From a virus, in UHGV virus genome UHGV-0142786: a stretch of 10,260 nt of DNA. The stretch is one strand, 5' to 3'. Made by a program: the position numbers and the translations under genes. This document shows positions 1,780 to 9,769 of the stretch, one piece after another; positions within the stretch are counted from its first letter, which is position 1; every line of letters begins with the position of its first letter. The notes below the pieces were generated by a model. The model searched no databases. It had not been told where the DNA came from and was given only the letters and a program-made list of their open reading frames with translations.

Positions 1780-2648
1780 GCAGCTTCCCTCCCGAAGTCG
1801 AAATCAAGCTGCCCTCCAAATATTTCGCATGACTCAGAACAAGAGCCGGTATCGAATCTTTTAGCTCGTACCATGTCCTGATACAGGGCTTGATAATCAT
1901 TTTCTGAATACATTTTCGCGATACCGTCCAGCGACATTCTTCCTCGGTACATAATCTCCTTTGGCGTTTCCCGATGTCCGTCACGCACATGGGATCCCGT
2001 GATGACCTCATTAAAAACACGCTGCAATCCCTCCTCATCTTTGCAGGCAAGTCCGATTTTTTGCGTTGATTTTTTAATGCAGAATATGCAGTTACCGAGA
2101 TGTTCCGGTATTTGCAAATCGAATGGTTGTTGCTTCCACCATGCGAGGATATCTTCCTTCTCAAAGTCTGACAGTTCAGCAAGATATCTGATTCCAGGCT
2201 TTGGCTTTAGCCGCTTCGGTTCATCAGCTCTGATGCCAATCCACGTGGTGTAATTCCCTCGCCCGAAATGGTCATCACAGTATTTGGTGAAGGGAACGAG
2301 TTTTAATCTGTCAGTGCAGAACGCGCCGCCGACGTATGGAGTGCCATATTTCTTTACCATATCGATAAATGGCTTCAGAACAGGCATTCGCGTCTGAATA
2401 TCCTTTGGTTCCCATACCGTATAACCATTTGGCTGTCCAAGCTCCGGGTTGATATCAACCTGCAATACGGTGAGCGGTATATCCCAGAACTTCACAACTT
2501 CCCTGACAAACCGATATGTCATTGGATGTTCACAACCTGTATCCATGAAAACGTAATACACGTCTTCACCTGCCTGTCGCTTTTGCTCCATTAGCCAGAG
2601 TAAATATGCTGACGTCCTGCCACCTGAGAAACTAACGACATTTATCAT
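1776..2648 (-). CDS. ninC: NinC, PAPS-reductase-like family protein (290 aa)
   Basis: Track ORF 1776..2666. True start taken as [17 protein letters not shown] (ATG 2648..2646), which overlaps the HNH stop as [12 protein letters not shown] resembles the PAPS-reductase/ATP-PPase P-loop. Near-identical to my recollection of lambda NinC. Confidence 0.85.
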
Positions 2649-3247
2649 GCAGCCCTGTCTCCCCATCTTGCTTTCATTGTTTCATTTGCAAATCGCCAGA
2701 ATCTTCCTTTGTGATATGAGCTTTCGCCATTACAGCAACGACTAATTGACGAACTATCAAATCCTTCTCTGACAGCATCCATAGCTGCTTCATAATAAAC
2801 CTCCTCACCAGTTTTCATGTCAGTAGAAATAACAGCTTTACTGGCAGGATGATCACCGCTAAATTTACCTAGCGATATAGGTATTCTTCCATTTTGTTTA
2901 TATCCGTGCTTTGAGTTTTCAGAATGTGATACCCATTCAAGGTTTTCAGCCCTATTGTCATCTCTTTGCCCATTTTTGTGATTAACTACCAAGCCATCAC
3001 AGAACCCTGTACAGAATGCTTTCGCAACTATCCTGTGGGCGCTGTATTTCTTACCGTATACCTTTATTTGAAGATATCCTGTCGACTTGCACTTGAATGG
3101 TTTTACGCTAGTGCCATTAATTATTTTCTTATATGGCCTCTGTCTGGTTGATGTTACTGTAACTTCCCTCGTAATAGACCTGAAATTTCCTTTATTGCTA
3201 ACCTGATAAAATGGAATCCCTTCGATATCTACCCAAACCTCAATCAT
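2645..3247 (-). CDS. HNH homing endonuclease (NUMOD4 + HNH_3 type), inserted at the 3' end of ninB
   Basis: 200-aa ORF. N-terminal EVWVDIEGIPFYQVSNKGNFRS resembles NUMOD4; HKNGQRDDNRAENLEWVSHSENSKHG is an HNH_3 motif. Own GGAGG Shine-Dalgarno. The last 9 residues KARWGDRAA equal the lambda NinB C-terminus. Confidence 0.85.
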   Translation of the reverse strand: MIEVWVDIEGIPFYQVSNKGNFRSITREVTVTSTRQRPYKKIINGTSVKPFKCKSTGYLQIKVYGKKYSAHRIVAKAFCTGFCDGLVVNHKNGQRDDNRAENLEWVSHSENSKHGYKQNGRIPISLGKFSGDHPASKAVISTDMKTGEEVYYEAAMDAVREGFDSSSISRCCNGESSYHKGRFWRFANETMKARWGDRAA

Positions 3248-3656
3248 AATTCCTCCATTCGCTAAGATGAATTGAGTTCATGGCACAATATGCTTCTATG
3301 TAGTCCATTATTTCGGATATTTTTTTTACAGATAGAGTCGCCGTACTCTCTCTGATGTTTATTAGCTCACCTTCTAACCCTGATATAATCTCAGGGTGCT
3401 GGTTGGTTGCAATTTGCCAACCAGAAACGAATAACCCCTTCCAAAACTCAATATTTCTTTCTTTTCCATGATATGTGGCCTTCTTACTTATTTCAGATAG
3501 CATCGCGTGAAGGCGTGCATTTTGCCGAATGCTGCGGTTGCGTTCCTGAATGGTTACTACGATTGGTTTGGTTGGGTCTGGAAGAATTTGCTGCACCGCG
3601 TGAATAGCGTTTTGCTGATGTGCTGGAGATCGAATTTCAAAGGTTAGTTTTTTCAT
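3240..3656 (-). CDS. ninB: NinB (Orf-family recombination mediator), mosaic and C-terminally altered
   Basis: Track ORF 3240..3674 starts at a TTG; the ATG at 3656 gives MKKLTFEIRSPAHQQNAIHAVQQILPDPTKPIVVTIQERNRS, identical to the lambda NinB N-terminus as I recall it. The rest is divergent but collinear, and it ends ...LSEWRNYD instead of ...[14 protein letters not shown]. Confidence 0.8.
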   Translation of the reverse strand: MKKLTFEIRSPAHQQNAIHAVQQILPDPTKPIVVTIQERNRSIRQNARLHAMLSEISKKATYHGKERNIEFWKGLFVSGWQIATNQHPEIISGLEGELINIRESTATLSVKKISEIMDYIEAYCAMNSIHLSEWRNYD

Positions 3657-3671
3657 GACTTCCCTCTCCCC

Positions 3672-3704
3672 CAAATAAAAAGGCCTGCGATTACCAGCAG
3701 GCCT
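3672..3704 (-). terminator. Rho-independent terminator on the minus strand between the replication genes and the nin region (tR2 analogue)
   Basis: Stem AGGCCTGC (3681-3688) / GCAGGCCT (3697-3704) with an 8-nt loop; on the minus strand it is followed by TTTTATTTG (rc of 3672-3680). Lies 30 nt downstream of the primase-helicase stop. Confidence 0.65.
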
Positions 3705-3733: not shown

Positions 3734-5614
3734 TTAATACTCCGTCACGTTTTCCTGTCGCCACGCCTCGTCATATTCCGATTTCGGCATATTGGCGATG
3801 TAGCTATATGGCGATCCTGATTCAAGTTGCAGGAACTGGTGCGATTGCTCATCAAGGAACAACGGGACGCCACCTTCCCAACCTTCGCCGTTACGTTGTT
3901 TTTCAAGCATCAAAACAGATGCCGGAGACGCCAGTACCTGTTCGTCCTTCTCTGACATCTTTTCACCACTCTGAACTCTCTGTAACGCTCTCTCGCGAGC
4001 CTTGTTACGCCAGATGATGAAAAGGTTGTCTGTCAGGTCTGTTATCGCTCCAGAGCCTTTTACGTCCATTTTCCCGGTTGGTTTTTCTTCGCTGTCTCCT
4101 TTTCTGGAGTGAGTAACGAGAATGACGTGGGAGTTTGTTTTGTTTTTGAAGTCACAAATCGAGTCAACAAATGCTTTCTGCCCGTTATAGTCATCGTCAC
4201 CTATGCCGCATTTCATCAGGCTGTCGATGATGAATAACTGGATCCCGTATCGGCGGCGAGCGTAGTCGAATATTTCGATCAGCCTGTCGGCTTTCGCCGT
4301 TCCGGTCAGGCCAAACACCCAAAGTCTTTCGTCATAAAATTTAAATGCAGAGTCAATTTCCAGCACTGGCGGCATCTTGCAGCACGTCGCCTGACGGGTA
4401 AGGCGCTTAAGGAGAATACCAGGCTTCAGCTCAAGTGACGCGATGCACGTCTTCACACCCTGACGCATTGCCTCAAGTGCCATATGCCCGACAACCTCCG
4501 TTTTTCCGTGACCGTTCACACCATTGACCAGCGTCAACTCTGCCTCACGGAACTGGAATTTATCTGCCAGAGATTCCCACGGTGGATTAAACAGATACTG
4601 CTGCTTGCCGTAGAAAGCGTTGATAGTGTCCTGGTAAAACTCTCGCGCGCTGTAGAGTTCTTCAGGGTCGAAGTAGGATGCCGTGCCGATGTACTGCCAG
4701 ATTTCATCCTCGGTAACACCGTTCATCAGGCATTCGTTGATGTCTTTGTACGGCAGAGTAACAAGACGGCAACGATGTTCACCGAGTCGGCTTGCGATTT
4801 CCCTTGCGGCTTCACGACCAACATCATCAACGTCCATCGAGATGAATATTTCCTCAAACCTGTCGAGATTGTGATACTCAAACTCAATCCACTGCTGCTT
4901 AGCGCCTTTCCCGCCACCAAACGGCACGGATAACGCCGAGATGCCGTATTGCGCATAGCTCATACAATCAATTTCGCCTTCGCAAAGTACAACCGCCCTC
5001 ACGCCAGCGTCCAGAGCCTGCCATCCGAACAGACAAGGTTCGCAATCACCTTCTGCCATAATGACTTTCTTCCCGTCCGGGCGCTCAGTGCTGATTCGCT
5101 TGACCTGCAACAACTCACCATCGCGTTTGTACGGAATCACCAGAGCATCCAGTTCCCGCTCTCCATTCCACACCTTGCCGCTGACAACCTCGTAGCGCTT
5201 TACGACTTCTGGCGATATGCCACGCGATTGCAGGTACTCAAGATGGGATTCTGTTCTGGTAACGTAGCGGGCGATTTTCTTGCGATCAGGTCTGGAGAAT
5301 TTCTTCTCACGTTTGGCATCGAAATGGTGATCGTCATCCTTGATACCGAGAAATGCTTTCGCTTCCTGCATAGCCTGATGCAGGTTAATTCCACGACATG
5401 CCATCCACAAATCAAGCATGTCACCGCCGTCTCCCTCAGCGAAATCAGCCCATTTTTTCTTTCCGCTAAGGTTGACCTTAAGGCTGTTTCCCTTGTCACC
5501 GTTGACGTTACCGGCAACCCACTCATGCCCCTCTTTCTTGCCGTTTGGCAACAGGTGCGGAGCCACCCTGTCAACCTGCGCCCAAAGCAGGTCGCTAAGT
5601 TCACTTGGCCTCAT
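3734..5614 (-). CDS. Bifunctional DNA primase/helicase (TOPRIM domain plus RecA-fold DnaB/T7-gp4-like helicase), 626 aa
   Basis: TOPRIM-like acidic motifs VVLCEGEIDCMSYAQ and ISMDVDDVG; Walker A GVNGHGKTE; Walker B-like LFIIDSL. Occupies the lambda P position downstream of the O-like gene. GAGGG Shine-Dalgarno 5 nt upstream. Confidence 0.8.
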   Translation of the reverse strand: MRPSELSDLLWAQVDRVAPHLLPNGKKEGHEWVAGNVNGDKGNSLKVNLSGKKKWADFAEGDGGDMLDLWMACRGINLHQAMQEAKAFLGIKDDDHHFDAKREKKFSRPDRKKIARYVTRTESHLEYLQSRGISPEVVKRYEVVSGKVWNGERELDALVIPYKRDGELLQVKRISTERPDGKKVIMAEGDCEPCLFGWQALDAGVRAVVLCEGEIDCMSYAQYGISALSVPFGGGKGAKQQWIEFEYHNLDRFEEIFISMDVDDVGREAAREIASRLGEHRCRLVTLPYKDINECLMNGVTEDEIWQYIGTASYFDPEELYSAREFYQDTINAFYGKQQYLFNPPWESLADKFQFREAELTLVNGVNGHGKTEVVGHMALEAMRQGVKTCIASLELKPGILLKRLTRQATCCKMPPVLEIDSAFKFYDERLWVFGLTGTAKADRLIEIFDYARRRYGIQLFIIDSLMKCGIGDDDYNGQKAFVDSICDFKNKTNSHVILVTHSRKGDSEEKPTGKMDVKGSGAITDLTDNLFIIWRNKARERALQRVQSGEKMSEKDEQVLASPASVLMLEKQRNGEGWEGGVPLFLDEQSHQFLQLESGSPYSYIANMPKSEYDEAWRQENVTEY

Positions 5615-5718
5615 GATTCCCTCAGATTGAGATTTTTAAACCAGAAATCGACAAACGAAATACTTAACCAGCCGTGGTTATAACCAGCGACCAGTAGCGA
5701 TTTGATTTTTGATTTCAT
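5611..5718 (-). CDS. Candidate small ORF (35 aa) between the O-like gene and the primase-helicase
   Basis: Hand translation MKSKIKSLLVAGYNHGWLSISFVDFWFKNLNLRES. AGGTGA Shine-Dalgarno upstream; stop TGA overlaps the primase ATG (ATGA). Too short for the ORF track; no homology recognised. Confidence 0.3.
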   Translation of the reverse strand: MKSKIKSLLVAGYNHGWLSISFVDFWFKNLNLRES

Positions 5719-5721
5719 GGT

Positions 5722-6582
5722 TCACCTGTCGAAAAACACGTAGCCAGTTTTCGATACGGTGATTGCGGATGATGGTTTGGATTGTGGTTGAATGGTTTCT
5801 GGCTTTTCGTCGTTCCAGCGCTGACCGTTCAGGTAGCTCGATGGTAATAACCTGTCGAATCCGAACTGCTTACCATTCCTGCATGCGATGTCTTCTGCCA
5901 GCATCGTGGCAAACTCGCTTGCCGTACCCCTGGTAGTTTTACGCCATTCCCTGAACTGTGTTCTGAATGCCGAAGCTGCGTTTTTCTTCCCGGCCTTCCG
6001 CATGCCTGCACACCAGAATATTTCCTCGAATGCCTTGTCGGTTTCTTCGTGACGGTCAGGTGATTTTTCACACTCCGTCCGAACACTTTCGGACATAGTG
6101 TTTTTATTATTTCTTTTTTCTTTTGTAATAGTTTCTTTTGTGTGTCCCTGTTTTGGTGACAGCGCTGTCACCGTTTTGGTGACACTTTTTGTCACCAATG
6201 CAGTGACATTATCACCAGAGTAGTGACACCCTTCGATTTGCCATTCCTCGATGTTCTTGTTAGGCCCGATTTGCTGGCCTTCGCGAAGGATAACCTTCAT
6301 CGCGATAAGCTCATTCTTGGCCTTGTTTACCTTCTGTCTTGGCAGCCTGGTAATTTGAGCTAACTGACTATCAGAGATGCGATCCATCTTTTTACCGTAG
6401 CCGTATGTTTTACGGCATATGGCGTGGGCAACCTTGCTCTGATTTTTCGTTAAATCTGCGCCGATAAGCTCTTCATACAGGGCATTTGCAAGACGGGTAT
6501 AACCATCTTCAACTTCTGCCACACGACGCTCCACAGGCCGTTGTGAAGGCCTTAAATGTGTTACGGTTGCAAGATTACTCAT
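5722..6582 (-). CDS. Replication initiator with lambda-O-like N-terminal iteron-binding domain and a non-lambda C-terminal domain
   Basis: 286-aa [94 protein letters not shown] aligns with my recollection of the lambda O N-terminal domain. Iterons and an AT-rich tract lie inside the gene, as in ori-lambda. Confidence 0.85.
6093..6230. repeat. Candidate replication origin inside the O-like gene: four GTGACA-type iterons plus an adjacent AT-rich tract
   Basis: Perfect 18-bp palindrome GGTGACAGCGCTGTCACC (6155-6172); GGTGACACTTTTTGTCACC (6178-6196); GTGACATTATCACC (6204-6216); GTGACAC (6223-6229). AT-rich tract at about 6093-6150. In gene orientation: iterons first, then AT-rich, as in ori-lambda. 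Confidence 0.65.
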
Positions 6583-6721
6583 GACCTTTATCCTTCTGCA
6601 TCAGCTTCACTTTTTCCAACTCAGCCCGGAATCGACCAGGCTGCCTGAAGCTGGACAGGAAGCGATCACGTAGTATGTGTTTGTGAATTTTGTCCTGGTA
6701 AGGACTGAGTTGTTTTGTCAT
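6575..6721 (-). CDS. Candidate small basic ORF (48 aa) between cII and the O-like gene
   Basis: Hand translation [48 protein letters not shown]. Strong AGGAG Shine-Dalgarno 5 nt upstream of ATG 6721; 3' end overlaps the O-like start. Lambda has no gene in this position. Confidence 0.4.
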
Positions 6722-6753: not shown

Positions 6754-7050
6754 TCAGAATTGCATATCAATTTGCTTAAAATCCTCGGTGGCGGCCGGGG
6801 ATTTTTTCTTTGTGAGTCCATCAAGCGCATACTTAAAAGCCCTGCTAATCGGACTGATGTCTGATGCCATTCCGAAAGCACACAAGACCGAAGCAATAAA
6901 TCTCCAGTCCGTTCTGCTTATCTTCGATTCATGACAGCCAATCATCTTTGCCAGACCGCGCTGGGTAAGCGTTGACAGGTTGATGAGTAAATCAGTTTCA
7001 GCGCGATCAATTTCTCGCTGTGTTGGCTTGCTGTAACTTGTTTGTGCCAT
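6754..7050 (-). CDS. cII: CII-like transcriptional activator (98 aa)
   Basis: C-terminus [19 protein letters not shown] against lambda CII TNKKRPAATERSEQIQMEF; central [11 protein letters not shown] against lambda SQISRWKRDW. Lies between cro and the replication genes. Confidence 0.8.
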
Positions 7051-7191: not shown

Positions 7192-7407
7192 TTAAGCAGC
7201 TTTGTGCTCCGGCGGGAACACATCATCAAGACTTACTTTTGCGCCTAACTTGTTTAGACACGCAACAAGAGCACGGCATGTTTTAAGGTCTGGGAAGCGA
7301 CGACCAGATTCCCAATGTCCGATAGCTCCCTGTGTGCATCCAACTGCCTTAGCAAGTGTTGTTTGAGAGATATTCAGTGACTCTCGATATTTTCGTAGGT
7401 TGCTCAT
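7192..7407 (-). CDS. cro: Cro-like HTH repressor (71 aa)
   Basis: Small HTH protein ([23 protein letters not shown]) transcribed divergently from cI, with a GGAGG Shine-Dalgarno. Confidence 0.8.
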
Positions 7408-7524
7408 ATGCCCTCCATAGTAACCACAAATAAAAAATACAATATGTACTCATTAAACACAAGCAAAAAATACACATTGTGCATGGATGGTTCCAGTACA
7501 AAGCGTAATAATAAGGACATGAAA
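7408..7524. promoter_or_regulatory. Divergent cro/cI control region (OR with PR and PRM)
   Basis: 117-bp gap between the divergent cro and cI starts. Two similar sites: AAAAAATACAATATGTAC (7433-7450) and AAAAAATACACATTGTGC (7465-7482), the second holding the palindrome CACATTGTG. Exact -10/-35 boxes not resolved. Confidence 0.55.
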
Positions 7525-8178
7525 ATGAAATGGTATGAACTGGCTAGATCCAGAATGAAAGAGCTCGGCATAACTCAAGAGAAGTTAGCCGAAGAGCTAG
7601 GTATGACGCAGGGTGGAATTGGACACTGGTTGCGCGGATCTCGTCATCCATCTCTTAGTGATATTGGTGTGGTGTTTAAATACCTTGGTATTGATAACAT
7701 ATCATTCAACCACGACGGGACATTTTCACCTGTTGGCGAATACTCATCGGCCCCAGTTAAAAAACAATATGAGTACCCTGTTTTTTCTCATGTTCAGGCT
7801 GGGATGTTCTCTCCAGAACTCAGAACCTTTACCAAAGGCGATGCGGAGAGATTGGTAAGCACAACCAAAAAAGCCAGTGACTCTGCATTCTGGCTTGAGG
7901 TTGAAGGTAACTCAATGACCGCACCAACAGGTTCCAAACCTAGTTTTCCTGACGGGATGTTAATTCTGGTTGACCCAGAGCAAGCTGTTGAGCCCGGCGA
8001 TTTCTGCATAGCCAGACTTGGTGGTGATGAGTTTACCTTCAAGAAACTGATCAGGGATAGCGGTCAGGTGTTTCTACAGCCACTAAACCCACAATACCCA
8101 ATGATCCCATGCAATGAGAGTTGTTCCGTTGTGGGGAAAGTTATCGCTAGTCAGTGGCCTGAAGAGACGTTTGGGTAG
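7525..8178 (+). CDS. cI: CI prophage repressor: HTH N-terminal domain plus LexA/S24-type autocleavage C-terminal domain
   Basis: C-terminal domain from [14 protein letters not shown] to WPEETFG is essentially identical to lambda CI as I recall it; the N-terminal domain is unrelated to lambda. Track ORF from 7408 is over-extended into the cro start. ATG 7525 has an AAGGA Shine-Dalgarno at 7 nt; ATG 7519 is the alternative. Confidence 0.85.
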
Positions 8179-8366: not shown

Positions 8367-8588
8367 ATGAAAAAATCTGCAAAGCACTTTTTCAGCGCTA
8401 TGGGCTCTATCCTTGACCTTTGCCCAGCAGGTAGCTACAGCGAGTATCATTCAAATGCTACAGACATCGACCTTATCAACTCAGATTGGGTTAAGGTAGG
8501 TAGTTACGTTAGAGACGCTGTAACTGATAATGAGCAGAAAAAAATCCCAAAGAAAGCTTCAAACCGCCGCCCCGAGAAATCTTGTTAA
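8367..8588 (+). CDS. Hypothetical small protein (73 aa as read), first ORF of the rex-position cassette
   Basis: AGGA Shine-Dalgarno 8 nt upstream of ATG 8367. No homology recognised. The 3' end overlaps the next ORF by 59 nt across an A7 run. Confidence 0.5.
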   Translation: MKKSAKHFFSAMGSILDLCPAGSYSEYHSNATDIDLINSDWVKVGSYVRDAVTDNEQKKIPKKASNRRPEKSC

Positions 8589-9063
8589 CCAACCAACTCC
8601 GTTAGGGCGAGTTCAAGACGGTAAAACCGAACTGCTTATAAATGAGGTCGCAAAGAACCCTCAAGTTCTTGAGCGCCTCATGGACAGGCCAGATCTAGCT
8701 GGCATCATGATGCAGGTGACTCACACTAGATCAGGGCCACTCCCAGACGCTGACGAATTAGCTAAGTACGAAAGAATATCTCCAGGATTCGCTCGCGAAA
8801 TAATGGACATGGCTAAGGCTGAGCAAAAACACAGACACGAGTATTACAAAGCAGGACAGAGGGGAGCAATTTGGCGAGATCGACTCGGACAGATCTTTGC
8901 GATGACTTCTGTCTTTGTTTTCGCAGGAATTGCTTACAAGATGATTCAGCACGAGGCTTATGGCTGGGCTACCGGGCTTCTTGGTGCTGAGTTAGTTGCT
9001 TTAACTAGCGTGTTTATAATTGGAAGAAGAGACAAACCGAATCCAAAGCAAACTAAAAAATGA
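8530..9063 (+). CDS. Hypothetical membrane protein with two C-terminal transmembrane helices, possibly DUF2335-like
   Basis: 177-aa ORF. Motif LPDADELAKYERISPGFAREIMDMAKAEQKHRHEY followed by hydrophobic IFAMTSVFVFAGIAY and WATGLLGAELVALTSVFIIG. The DUF2335 assignment is from memory and unverified. No clear Shine-Dalgarno at 8530. Confidence 0.6.
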   Translation: MSRKKSQRKLQTAAPRNLVNQPTPLGRVQDGKTELLINEVAKNPQVLERLMDRPDLAGIMMQVTHTRSGPLPDADELAKYERISPGFAREIMDMAKAEQKHRHEYYKAGQRGAIWRDRLGQIFAMTSVFVFAGIAYKMIQHEAYGWATGLLGAELVALTSVFIIGRRDKPNPKQTKK

Positions 9064-9093: not shown

Positions 9094-9277
9094 TGCCTAA
9101 CGCCCCCAAAAAAACACATAACCAATTGTATTTATTTTAAAATTAATAGATACAACTCACTAAACAACGCAATTCTGATCTCTCCCTACATCGCCGAGGC
9201 AATACACCCACGCTAAAAAACAACACTATTAAATACAAAGCGTTGTAAAAAACCACCCCTCAATAGAACAAATCGTA

Positions 9278-9422: not shown

Positions 9423-9472
9423 GGATGCAATGCCGAAGCAACCGGCTCAGGAGGAGCTTCGAGATTGCATCG
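9423..9472 (+). other. Long imperfect hairpin in the N leader, candidate RNase III processing or translational control structure
   Basis: GATGCAAT (9423-9430) pairs with ATTGCATC (9465-9472); CGAAGC (9433-9438) pairs with GCTTCG (9456-9461). Lies between nutL and the N Shine-Dalgarno GGGAGG (9486-9491). Confidence 0.4.
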
Positions 9473-9496
9473 CCAAAGTTTATTCGGGAGGAATCT

Positions 9497-9769
9497 ATGT
9501 CCAGAAAAACAGAATTTAAAGGCACCGCAGCTTCTCGCCGTAGAGCTCGTCGTGCAAACCTGCAAAGTCAGGAGGCGATCAGCTCTGACAAACTACACAG
9601 GCCAACCCCTTCACGAGTGGTCTTACAATGCAAACGCAAACCAGTAATGAGAGCAGAAGTAATAACACTGACAACGTTGACCAGAAAATATGAAGGCTCA
9701 ACTTGTCTTCCAAATGTAGCCATTTACGCGGCAGGCTACAGGAAATCCAAACAGCTGACAGCAAGATGA
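9497..9769 (+). CDS. N: N-type transcription antiterminator (90 aa)
   Basis: Arginine-rich motif GTAASRRRARRANLQ near the N-terminus; C-terminus LPNVAIYAAGYRKSKQLTAR resembles my recollection of P22 gene 24 (LPGVALYAAGHRKSKQITAR). Track ORF from 9425 is over-extended; ATG 9497 follows GGGAGG. Confidence 0.8.
   Translation: MSRKTEFKGTAASRRRARRANLQSQEAISSDKLHRPTPSRVVLQCKRKPVMRAEVITLTTLTRKYEGSTCLPNVAIYAAGYRKSKQLTAR

Follow-up and report, generated by a model that had tools for sequence, protein, structure and literature searches.

How does a lambdoid prophage replicate when its initiator resembles lambda O and no P gene follows it? This question is raised by a stretch of 10,260 nucleotides from the viral genome UHGV-0142786 (the window), in which positions 3734-6582 (minus strand, 2849 bp) carry an initiator gene, a 35-aa ORF and a primase-helicase gene, in that order. 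The three genes lie after cII and before ninB, in the place of O, ori and P in lambda. As in ES18 and mEp043, the interval between cII and ninB holds an initiator with a characteristic C-terminal domain (Cdom), a small ORF resembling ES18 gp60 and a primase-helicase of 625-640 aa. We found no P-type loader between the initiator and ninB, where only the 35-aa ORF and the primase-helicase reside, and a tblastn search for lamP gave no match in 80 near-identical viral loci. An Rfam scan of the window gave no match.

The locus is the replication module from the early-right region of a lambdoid prophage and belongs to the type annotated in ES18, epsilon34, g341c, mEp043 and Sf101. Two deposited sequenced phage genomes, those of mEp043 and Sf101, carry a copy at ∼99% identity (98.8-98.9% at the nucleotide level across the entire 2849 bp), and copies occur in 298/5426 complete E. 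coli genomes. The module is not new: public annotation (ES18 record, AY736146) already gives both the gene arrangement and its interpretation, and for that reason its value as a discovery is small. Full-text literature searches found no experimental study of this module type.

The initiator gene (5722-6582, minus strand, 286 aa; identified from the ORF list, Pfam and BLASTP) encodes an N-terminal origin-binding domain, a linker specified by the iterons and an AT-rich tract, and a C-terminal domain that is not lambda's. An earlier note on this DNA had called the N-terminal domain lambda-O-like, and the Pfam search bears this out: Phage_rep_O (PF04492) matches aa 20-114 (6241-6525, minus strand) with an E-value of 1.2e-37 and 128.8 bits against a gathering cut-off of 28.7, all of profile positions 1-95 being covered. 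BLASTP aligns lambda O with 49% identity over about aa 1-157 (E 2e-42). This winged-helix domain is the presumed iteron binder. At the nucleotide level the initiator gene is 98.9% identical to the gene for 'DNA replication protein O' of mEp043 and Sf101, and the N-domain is 100% identical to that of the PhiR12_1 O gene.

Four 19-bp palindromic iterons, located by a pattern search at 6210-6228, 6190-6208, 6166-6184 and 6143-6161, lie within the initiator gene and share the consensus TGTCACC-N5-GGTGACA. Their start-to-start spacing in the gene direction (20, 24 and 23 bp) is that of lambda, whose annotated iterons start at 39034, 39054, 39078 and 39101 in the lambda record, and they align column for column and colinearly with the lambda and ES18 origins. 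When up to 3 mismatches are allowed, TGTCACCN5GGTGACA occurs five times in the window against 0.38 expected; four of the five matches form this cluster, and none of 200 shuffled windows reached five. The adjoining AT-rich tract (6100-6142, 81% A+T), a presumed DNA-unwinding element, is one of the window's most AT-rich 43-bp segments, is purine-rich on the gene strand and is identical to the AT-rich segment of lambda ori at 33 of 34 bases. Just past this tract is an inverted repeat with 14-bp arms (6070-6083 and 6088-6101) that are 86% complementary; lambda ori presumably carries a palindrome at the equivalent position. These features support the iterons at 6143-6228 and the AT-rich tract as a putative origin, in agreement with the earlier note, which had placed an internal origin here with iterons of the GTGACA type that differ from lambda's. 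Judged by sequence, the origin geometry and the AT-rich DNA are essentially those of lambda and the iteron arms alone differ, hence we propose that the origin specificity is different as well.

The C-terminal domain is the presumed partner-recruiting module (Cdom, aa 160-286, 5725-6105, minus strand), and we examined it by exhaustive phmmer searches and an AF2 model. No Pfam family matched it. The model is a helical bundle with a core pLDDT of about 88, and the folded core spans aa 179-259 (5806-6048). The window protein carries the motif AFEEIFWxAGMRKxGKK, which continues for a further 20 residues, and a more general form of the domain's motif is FExFWxAGxRKxxKxxA...FGFDxLHPxTYLNGxRWxDE, with a helical core of ∼80 residues. 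The exhaustive search yielded 367 cluster representatives at 50% identity, and its members carry at least six kinds of origin-binding N-domain. Look-alike motifs, FWSGNVLSPAKLRDKW and a second of 17 residues, and the pairing of Rodentibacter Cdom proteins with P homologues prompted a comparison of Cdom with the C-terminal end of lambda O. BLASTP gave no alignment to lambda O beyond aa 157, hhalign of lambda O against a 117-sequence profile gave a probability of 5.9% confined to the wHTH part, and a profile-profile comparison of Cdom with the lambda O C-terminal end gave 0.4%. A remote homology of the two is thus rejected at the sequence level, in line with the earlier claim that this half of the protein is unrelated to the P-binding half of lambda O.

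Cdom is co-inherited with the primase-helicase. The primase-helicase gene directly follows the initiator in 20 of 21 genome loci with a Cdom identity of 44% or more to that of the window, the exception being a 73-aa fragment. It is likewise downstream in 77/77 viral contigs with enough downstream DNA (80 in total), a scan with a single Cdom sequence that returned near-identical copies only and is uninformative on diversity. Natural domain swaps separate the parts of the module further. PhiR12_1 joins the window-type N-domain and iterons to a lambda-type C-terminal end, followed by ren and by a P that is 97% identical to lambda P. ES18 joins a lambda-type N-domain and iterons to Cdom, gp60 and the primase-helicase. 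Shiga-toxin (Stx) phages have an HTH_36 N-domain followed by the same Cdom, the small ORF and the primase-helicase; their Cdom is 87% identical over aligned aa 143-286, with one residue differing from aa 177 on. All swap junctions fall in conserved AT-rich DNA, and the AT-rich tract of the window is the recombination joint, where homology to the versions in ES18, Stx phages and PhiR12_1 begins or ends. Because Cdom always accompanies the primase-helicase in them and the lambda-type C-terminal end always accompanies P, the swaps support the prediction of the earlier note that the phage would use its own primase-helicase in place of P and DnaB.

The Cdom and primase-helicase genes are adjacent, and therefore their co-inheritance could partly reflect linkage. 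Cdom may then make no contact with the primase-helicase. The gp4-like enzyme would load itself on the AT-rich DNA once this is unwound, an ability of ring-opening T7-type SF4 helicases, and Cdom would have another role, for example in forming oligomers, handling ssDNA or contacting a host factor. Co-inheritance would follow from the two genes being neighbours on the right-hand side of a recombination hotspot. With contiguous genes and every junction in AT-rich DNA to their left, linkage alone predicts the pairing, and T7 gp4 needs no separate loader. The genome scan of partners also rejected the idea that Cdom is specific to primase-helicases: more distant members adjoin DnaB-type helicases, DnaC/IstB-like loaders (ATPases) or lambda-P homologues, the last in Rodentibacter, so that the family has four partner classes, and 24 of 64 loci have no recognised helicase or loader nearby. 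Yet the Cdom subfamily tracks the partner, members at least 44% identical standing with the primase-helicase and distant branches with DnaB, IstB-like or P-like proteins, and the lambda-type C-terminal end pairs with P even behind a window-type N-domain. This pattern mirrors the classical specificity of the O C-terminal end for P, and we regard a Cdom without contact to its neighbour as unlikely.

The primase-helicase gene (3734-5614, minus strand) encodes a 626-aa bifunctional protein of the T7 gp4/Twinkle type, assigned from the ORF list, Pfam, a phmmer search of the PDB and a match to phrog_239 (E 3e-171). The phmmer search aligned T7 gp4 (5ikn) to query aa 192-539 with an E-value of 2.6e-23, and Twinkle with 6e-14; the identity to gp4 is about 23%. 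The SF4 (DnaB/gp4-like) helicase domain occupies aa 355-594 (3833-4552, minus strand), where AAA_25 passes its cut-off of 27 with 28.0 bits and DnaB_C, at 23.9 bits, falls short of its own, also 27. The alignment with T7 gp4, which covers gp4 aa 75-444, takes in GxGKT, D464 and H502; Walker A (GVNGHGKT, aa 365-372, 4499-4522), Walker B (D464) and H502 are conserved with T7. The arginine in 'DLRGSG' of T7 gp4 aligns with Lys519 ('DVKGSG') and nearby R536 is invariant; we take the arginine finger of T7 gp4 to be R522. The earlier description of a 626-aa protein with a TOPRIM domain and a Walker A/B helicase is therefore confirmed, both folds being present.

The TOPRIM catalytic core (aa 209-296, 4727-4990, minus strand; Toprim_2 E 3e-12) contains E212-G-E214-x-D216, D261-x-D263 and K290-D291-x-N293, and the T7 alignment covers the corresponding motifs EGEID, DxD and KDxNE. 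Across a set of 58 homologues (identity 42% or higher), no substitution occurs at E212, E214, D261 or D263, and D216 is retained in 56 and D291 in 57. Upstream lies an N-terminal domain resembling a zinc-binding domain (ZBD; aa 1-95, 5330-5614, minus strand), recognised by homologue alignment and Foldseek. It has none of the four zinc ligands, C73 is the single Cys in aa 1-100, and none of its columns is a conserved Cys or His among the 58 homologues. In a weak alignment the CxxC of Aquifex DnaG lands on D57..E60, and a G/W/D signature is strongly conserved. The AF2 model of aa 1-320 (pLDDT 92.8) matches the fold of T7 gp4 primase, DnaG and Twinkle, and 1nui, 2au3 and 5guj are among the structures matched; Foldseek returned the ZBD and RPD of 2au3 at E 1e-12 and the ZBD of 1d0q at E 7e-3. 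Because the ZBD-like domain has lost all zinc-binding cysteines, primase competence of the 626-aa protein is probable rather than certain; in T7 gp4, template-directed priming depends on the ZBD.

The absence of the four ligands across the whole family, the name 'twinkle protein' given by JGI to relatives and the presence of human Twinkle among the top Foldseek matches of aa 1-320 would suit a protein that is a replicative helicase only, its primase half a relic as in metazoan Twinkle and its primers made by host DnaG or transcription, but we judge this very improbable, as the conserved TOPRIM residues and the high conservation of the zinc-less N-domain argue for retained catalysis. Metazoan Twinkle has lost the TOPRIM acidic residues. 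DnaG, moreover, docks on the N-terminal domain of DnaB, which gp4-type helicases lack, and a Pfam search of the 626-aa protein gave no match to that domain (PF00772).

Between the two large genes is a conserved 35-aa ORF (MKSKIKSLLVAGYNHGWLSISFVDFWFKNLNLRES; 5611-5718, minus strand), a homologue of ES18 gp60 (phrog_21848, E 4e-26) that the earlier note had overlooked. Its stop codon overlaps the start of the primase-helicase gene (ATGA). The ORF is kept in 15 diverged modules and missing from three otherwise intact ones, and because of these three a role as an obligatory loader is weakened.

We consider replication by the phage's own primase-helicase the best explanation of this early-right module, with a probability of roughly 75%. 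Once repression by cI ends, transcription running rightward through cro-cII would express three translationally packed genes. The O-like initiator would bind the four iterons in its own gene through the Phage_rep_O domain, and the resulting nucleoprotein complex would destabilise the adjoining lambda-like AT-rich tract. Cdom, in place of the P-binding half of lambda O, would then bring a hexameric primase-helicase of the T7 gp4 kind to the opened DNA, perhaps aided by the 35-aa protein. As this enzyme would both unwind the DNA and lay primers for host Pol III, we propose that the phage needs no P-type loader and probably none of host DnaB, DnaC and DnaG.

A broader generalisation is tentative and, in our view, rather doubtful. 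Cdom may be an undescribed, Pfam-less domain for recruiting replisome partners whose subfamilies set the partner (gp4-like primase-helicase, DnaB-type helicase, DnaC/IstB-like loader or lambda-P-like loader), an analogue and not a detectable homologue of the lambda O C-terminal end, and the 35-aa protein may be a new accessory factor that loads the zinc-less primase-helicase.

The module versions indicate that lambdoid phages exchange origin specificity (N-domain and iterons) independently of replisome-recruitment strategy (C-domain and partner), with crossovers in the conserved AT-rich DNA of the origin. In Shiga-toxin phages the type of replication region has been linked with lysogen stability and toxin output (PMC8951638 and others). 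Since these phages carry versions of the module, a possible independence from host DnaB and DnaG is of some practical interest.

The closest described system is ES18 gp59-gp60-gp61 (AY736146), with the same three-gene order, Cdom, 35-aa ORF, primase-helicase and an origin inside the initiator gene, at 88% nucleotide identity over window positions 3738-6155. Its record likens gp59 to lambda gpO and the rep_origin to lambda ori, and calls gp61 a putative primase/helicase resembling T7 gene 4. Modules of this type also occur in epsilon34, g341c and vB_SosS_Oslo. ES18 has a lambda-type N-domain and lambda-type iterons (ATCCCTC...GAGGGA), whereas the window has the 49%-identical variant of the N-domain and TGTCAC...GTGACA iterons. 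Coliphage mEp043 and Shigella phage Sf101, annotated with 'DNA replication protein O' and 'DNA primase/helicase', share the N-domain and iterons and show essentially no difference from the window.

Lambda itself shares the N-domain family, the four equally spaced inverted-repeat iterons inside the initiator gene and the near-identical AT-rich tract; it differs in the iteron arms and the C-terminal half, and in place of its P and ren the window has the small ORF and the primase-helicase. The Stx phages Min27, phi24B and Stx2a_F451 are 96-98% identical at the nucleotide level over window positions 3734-6106 (Cdom, small ORF and primase-helicase), but their HTH_36 N-domain comes with its own GC-rich repeats and a LAGLIDADG intein of ∼340 aa splits the helicase P-loop. 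From the text of PMC8951638, this HTH_36 and primase region is probably the Eru5 type of that paper.

With T7 gp4 and Twinkle the window enzyme shares the succession of a ZBD-like domain, a TOPRIM RNA-polymerase domain and an SF4 helicase. Like metazoan Twinkle it is without the Cys4 of the ZBD, but it keeps the catalytic TOPRIM residues. Replication of T7 begins at promoter-primed origins, and unlike T7 gp4 the window enzyme serves a temperate lambdoid phage whose initiator binds the origin.

Gene calls and domain searches show that the window spans the immunity and early-right genes of a lambdoid prophage, whose early-right operon runs on the minus strand. The plus strand carries N (9425-9769), a gene for a predicted 177-aa DUF2335 membrane protein (8530-9063) and a cI-type repressor gene (7408-8178). 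The minus strand carries genes for a cro-like HTH protein (7192-7407), cII (6754-7050), DUF2740 (6575-6721), a 286-aa O-like initiator (5722-6582), a 35-aa ORF (5611-5718), a 626-aa primase-helicase (3734-5614), NinB (3240-3674), a NUMOD4/HNH endonuclease (2645-3247), a PAPS-reductase-like protein (1776-2666), NinD (1606-1779), NinE (1463-1639), NinX (1101-1502), NinF (932-1108) and a Rha/KilAC antirepressor (217-939). As mechanically listed, the ORFs of cI and cro are directly contiguous, which leaves the OR operators and promoters no room; cI probably starts at an internal Met instead. The DUF2335 gene sits between cI and N, a position often occupied by exclusion genes in lambdoid phages, and the A+T content of the window peaks just downstream of it (~9108-9125). 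Individual blocks of the window are each common, and at most 62% of it is covered in one place by any complete E. coli genome; its mosaic of immunity, replication and nin regions is therefore not represented among those genomes. Three RefSeq matches (NC_019706, NC_027398 and NC_028696; hits H2, H5 and H8) list a "tail protein" that persists when the query is reduced to 6107-6582, so the feature probably corresponds to the DUF2740-type ORF that precedes the initiator gene, and the label looks like an annotation error.

The initiator contains a Phage_rep_O domain at aa 20-114 (Pfam, E 1.2e-37) and shares 49% identity with lambda O across aa 1-157, with no BLASTP similarity to lambda O beyond aa 157. 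Four 19-bp palindromic iterons lie inside its gene, reading on the gene strand TGTCACTACTCTGGTGATA (6210-6228), TGTCACTGCATTGGTGACA (6190-6208), TGTCACCAAAACGGTGACA (6166-6184) and TGTCACCAAAACAGGGACA (6143-6161). A pattern scan of the window gave five matches where 0.38 were expected, four of them in this group, and none of 200 shuffles reached five, pointing to a real, non-random origin cluster. The start-to-start spacing in the gene direction, 20, 24 and 23 bp, is exactly that of the annotated lambda iterons. Directly after the iterons is a 43-bp tract of 81% A+T, the first 34 bases of which match the AT-rich segment of the lambda ori at 33 of 34 positions, and then an inverted repeat with 14-bp arms. 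Aligned with MAFFT, the lambda and ES18 origins are colinear with that of the window iteron by iteron and differ in the iteron arms only. The earlier note had described both ORFs at these positions, a lambda-O-like N-domain and an internal origin with an AT-rich tract and iterons unlike those of lambda, and all of this is borne out.

The 626-aa protein, which the same note had called a TOPRIM plus Walker A/B helicase, has both folds: Pfam places Toprim_2 at aa 209-296 and AAA_25/DnaB_C at aa 355-594, and the protein matches T7 gp4 structures (E 2.6e-23, aa 192-539) and Twinkle (E 6e-14). AlphaFold2, run on aa 1-320 with 54 homologues, gave a model (mean pLDDT 92.8) that Foldseek matched in the PDB to the Aquifex DnaG ZBD+RPD (2au3, E 1e-12), human Twinkle, the primase fragment of T7 gp4 (1nui), RNA-polymerase domains of DnaG and, on its own, the zinc-binding domain of DnaG (1d0q, E 7e-3, target TM-score 0.60). 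The order of domains is thus ZBD-like domain, TOPRIM primase, SF4 helicase. The ZBD-like domain has one cysteine only, and among 58 homologues (42-100% identity) it has no conserved Cys/His column and a nearly invariant G/W/D signature, NGKxxGxEW..GS..GE.G.SL.V.L.G.K.W.DFA.G..GDLLDLW; in a weak alignment (E 1.4) the Aquifex DnaG CxxC falls on D57..E60. The TOPRIM residues E212, E214, D261 and D263 are invariant in 58/58 homologues, D216 is retained by 56 of them and D291 by 57, and they align with the T7 motifs EGEID, DxD and KDxNE, which argues for a working primase active site. Walker A (GVNGHGKT, aa 365-372), Walker B D464 and H502 also align with T7 gp4; opposite the arginine of its DLRGSG lies K519.

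The C-terminal domain of the initiator (aa 160-286, hereafter Cdom) matched no Pfam family and falls into PHROG families that carry a replication-initiator annotation. Profile comparison brought no match to lambda O: a profile of Cdom proteins aligned with it at a probability of 5.9%, confined to the wHTH, and the Cdom profile with that of the lambda O C-end at 0.4%, consistent with the claim that this half is unrelated to its lambda O counterpart. Searched exhaustively with phmmer, 1.84 billion cluster representatives yielded 367 relatives at E <= 1e-3, nearly all with the domain C-terminal in proteins of 240-360 aa. Across 116 aligned homologues (117 rows counting the query fragment) Cdom is fused to N-terminal domains of the types HTH_36 (19), DUF1376 (12), Phage_rep_O (11), DnaD_N (7), Lin1244_N (4), DUF6291 (2) and others, and it keeps a nearly invariant core, F..FW.AG..K..K..A...F ... 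F...L..D...R ... FGFD.L.P..YLN..RW.D. Its AF2 model is a four-helix core (pLDDT ~83-92 across domain aa 20-100) that matches, in BFVD, the C-ends of phage "replisome organizer", RepA-like, DUF1376 and DUF6291 proteins.

Scanned against GTDB genomes, the Cdom alignment picked out 64 loci, whose downstream ORFs we classified. Twenty-one, all in Enterobacterales and including Xenorhabdus, Providencia and Arsenophonus, are at least 44% identical to the window Cdom; in 20 of these a primase-helicase follows immediately (17 intact, 3 pseudogenised), the sole exception being a 73-aa Cdom fragment. The 35-aa ORF is also present in 15 of these modules and missing from 3 intact ones. Distant Cdoms precede DnaB-type helicases with DnaB and DnaB_C domains (8 loci), IstB/DnaC-like ATPases (6), lambda-P homologues (4, e.g. 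Rodentibacter, Phage_lambda_P E 3.6e-41) and, in Chryseobacterium, a Cys4-containing Toprim-helicase; 24 of the 64 loci had no recognisable partner among the downstream ORFs. The DnaB-type, IstB/DnaC-like and lambda-P partners rule out Cdom as a device specific to primase-helicases. Cdom and partner genes being neighbours, their co-inheritance at close range may instead reflect linkage, a rival reading. Because distant Cdoms precede such varied partners, Cdom is best seen as a putative generic recruitment module whose partner is set by subfamily. One uncultured Roseovarius MAG (OX638333, loci L134-L138) carries five copies of a 245-aa distant-Cdom gene on one chromosome, in two alternating downstream contexts.

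In the Stx phages Min27 (L003:1827-4409) and Stx2a_F451 (L005:1501-4407) an intein, an in-frame insert of ~340 aa that carries LAGLIDADG-like motifs, interrupts the primase-helicase at its Walker A loop (GHGK / ACPLNEP...VATHN / TEVV); IMG/VR loci L049 and L055 have an insert of the same size. In L013 (4492-4986), L016, L032, L041 and L074, modules otherwise identical, a free-standing 164-aa NUMOD4/HNH-type homing endonuclease gene lies between the 35-aa ORF and the primase-helicase. Intein and free-standing gene together mark the replication module as a hotspot for selfish homing elements. In the nin region of the window, the 200-aa NUMOD4 + HNH_3 + I-HmuI-like gene between ninB and the PAPS-reductase-like gene is probably another homing endonuclease. 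The Min27 record (EU311208) appears to contain frameshifts: its "O" reads on into a different frame of the C-domain, and its primase-helicase is divided between "P" (860 aa) and "ORF31 putative DNA primase". Both genes are intact in Stx2a_F451. The name "P" is wrong for the gene so labelled in Min27 and phi24B, which encodes a primase-helicase.

BLAST against phage genomes found the full 2849-bp module in mEp043 and Sf101 (98.8-98.9% identity), sequenced phages that carry this very module, and in SEN22 (91%). The window, mEp043 and Sf101 combine the window-type N-domain and iterons (TGTCAC...GTGACA) with Cdom, the 35-aa ORF and the primase-helicase. PhiR12_1 has the same N-domain and iterons (100% identical over 6110-6582) with a lambda-type C-end, P (97% identical to lambda P) and ren; lambda joins its own N-domain and iterons to that C-end, P and ren. 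ES18, epsilon34 and g341c, which match 3738-6155, place lambda-type N-domain and iterons before Cdom, gp60 and primase-helicase, and the Stx phages Min27, phi24B and Stx2a_F451, with matches restricted to 3734-6106, have HTH_36 and their own GC-rich repeats before Cdom, the 35-aa ORF and primase-helicase. The one-sided matches all switch at the conserved AT-rich DNA (a 14-residue coding segment), so N-domain plus iterons form one exchangeable unit and C-end plus partner another. Within the compared phages, the C-domain type predicts the partner perfectly.

The arrangement is already known, and the earlier note's reading restates existing annotation. In the ES18 record (AY736146), gp59 is annotated "similar to phage lambda gpO", an internal rep_origin "similar to lambda ori" and gp61 "putative primase/helicase; similar to phage T7 gene 4"; gp60 is given as unknown. 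The epsilon34 paper says the same and places origin specificity in the N-terminal part (PMC2629481). Stx-phage replication regions have been typed as "Eru" classes, HTH_36 and primase combinations included (PMC8044961, PMC8951638), and a survey from 2025, covering 314 lambdoid phages of Enterobacterales, makes mention of replication protein types (PMC12315714). We find the module in 298/5426 complete E. coli genomes; our literature search found no paper testing its mechanism. Modestly new are the definition of the Cdom family with its partner switching, the clean natural swap series, PhiR12_1 included, and a primase ZBD that is zinc-less yet conserved.

The comparisons support the interpretation of a module that brings its own primase-helicase instead of P. 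By homology to lambda, an O-some-like complex would most likely assemble on the four iterons and open the lambda-like AT tract. On comparative evidence, Cdom would then most likely bring in the gp4-like primase-helicase that the phage itself encodes, perhaps with the 35-aa protein assisting, and the fork would progress independently of P, DnaB, DnaC and DnaG. In the classical lambda/phi80/82 hybrids, O-ori and O-P specificity reportedly follow the same logic as these natural swaps.
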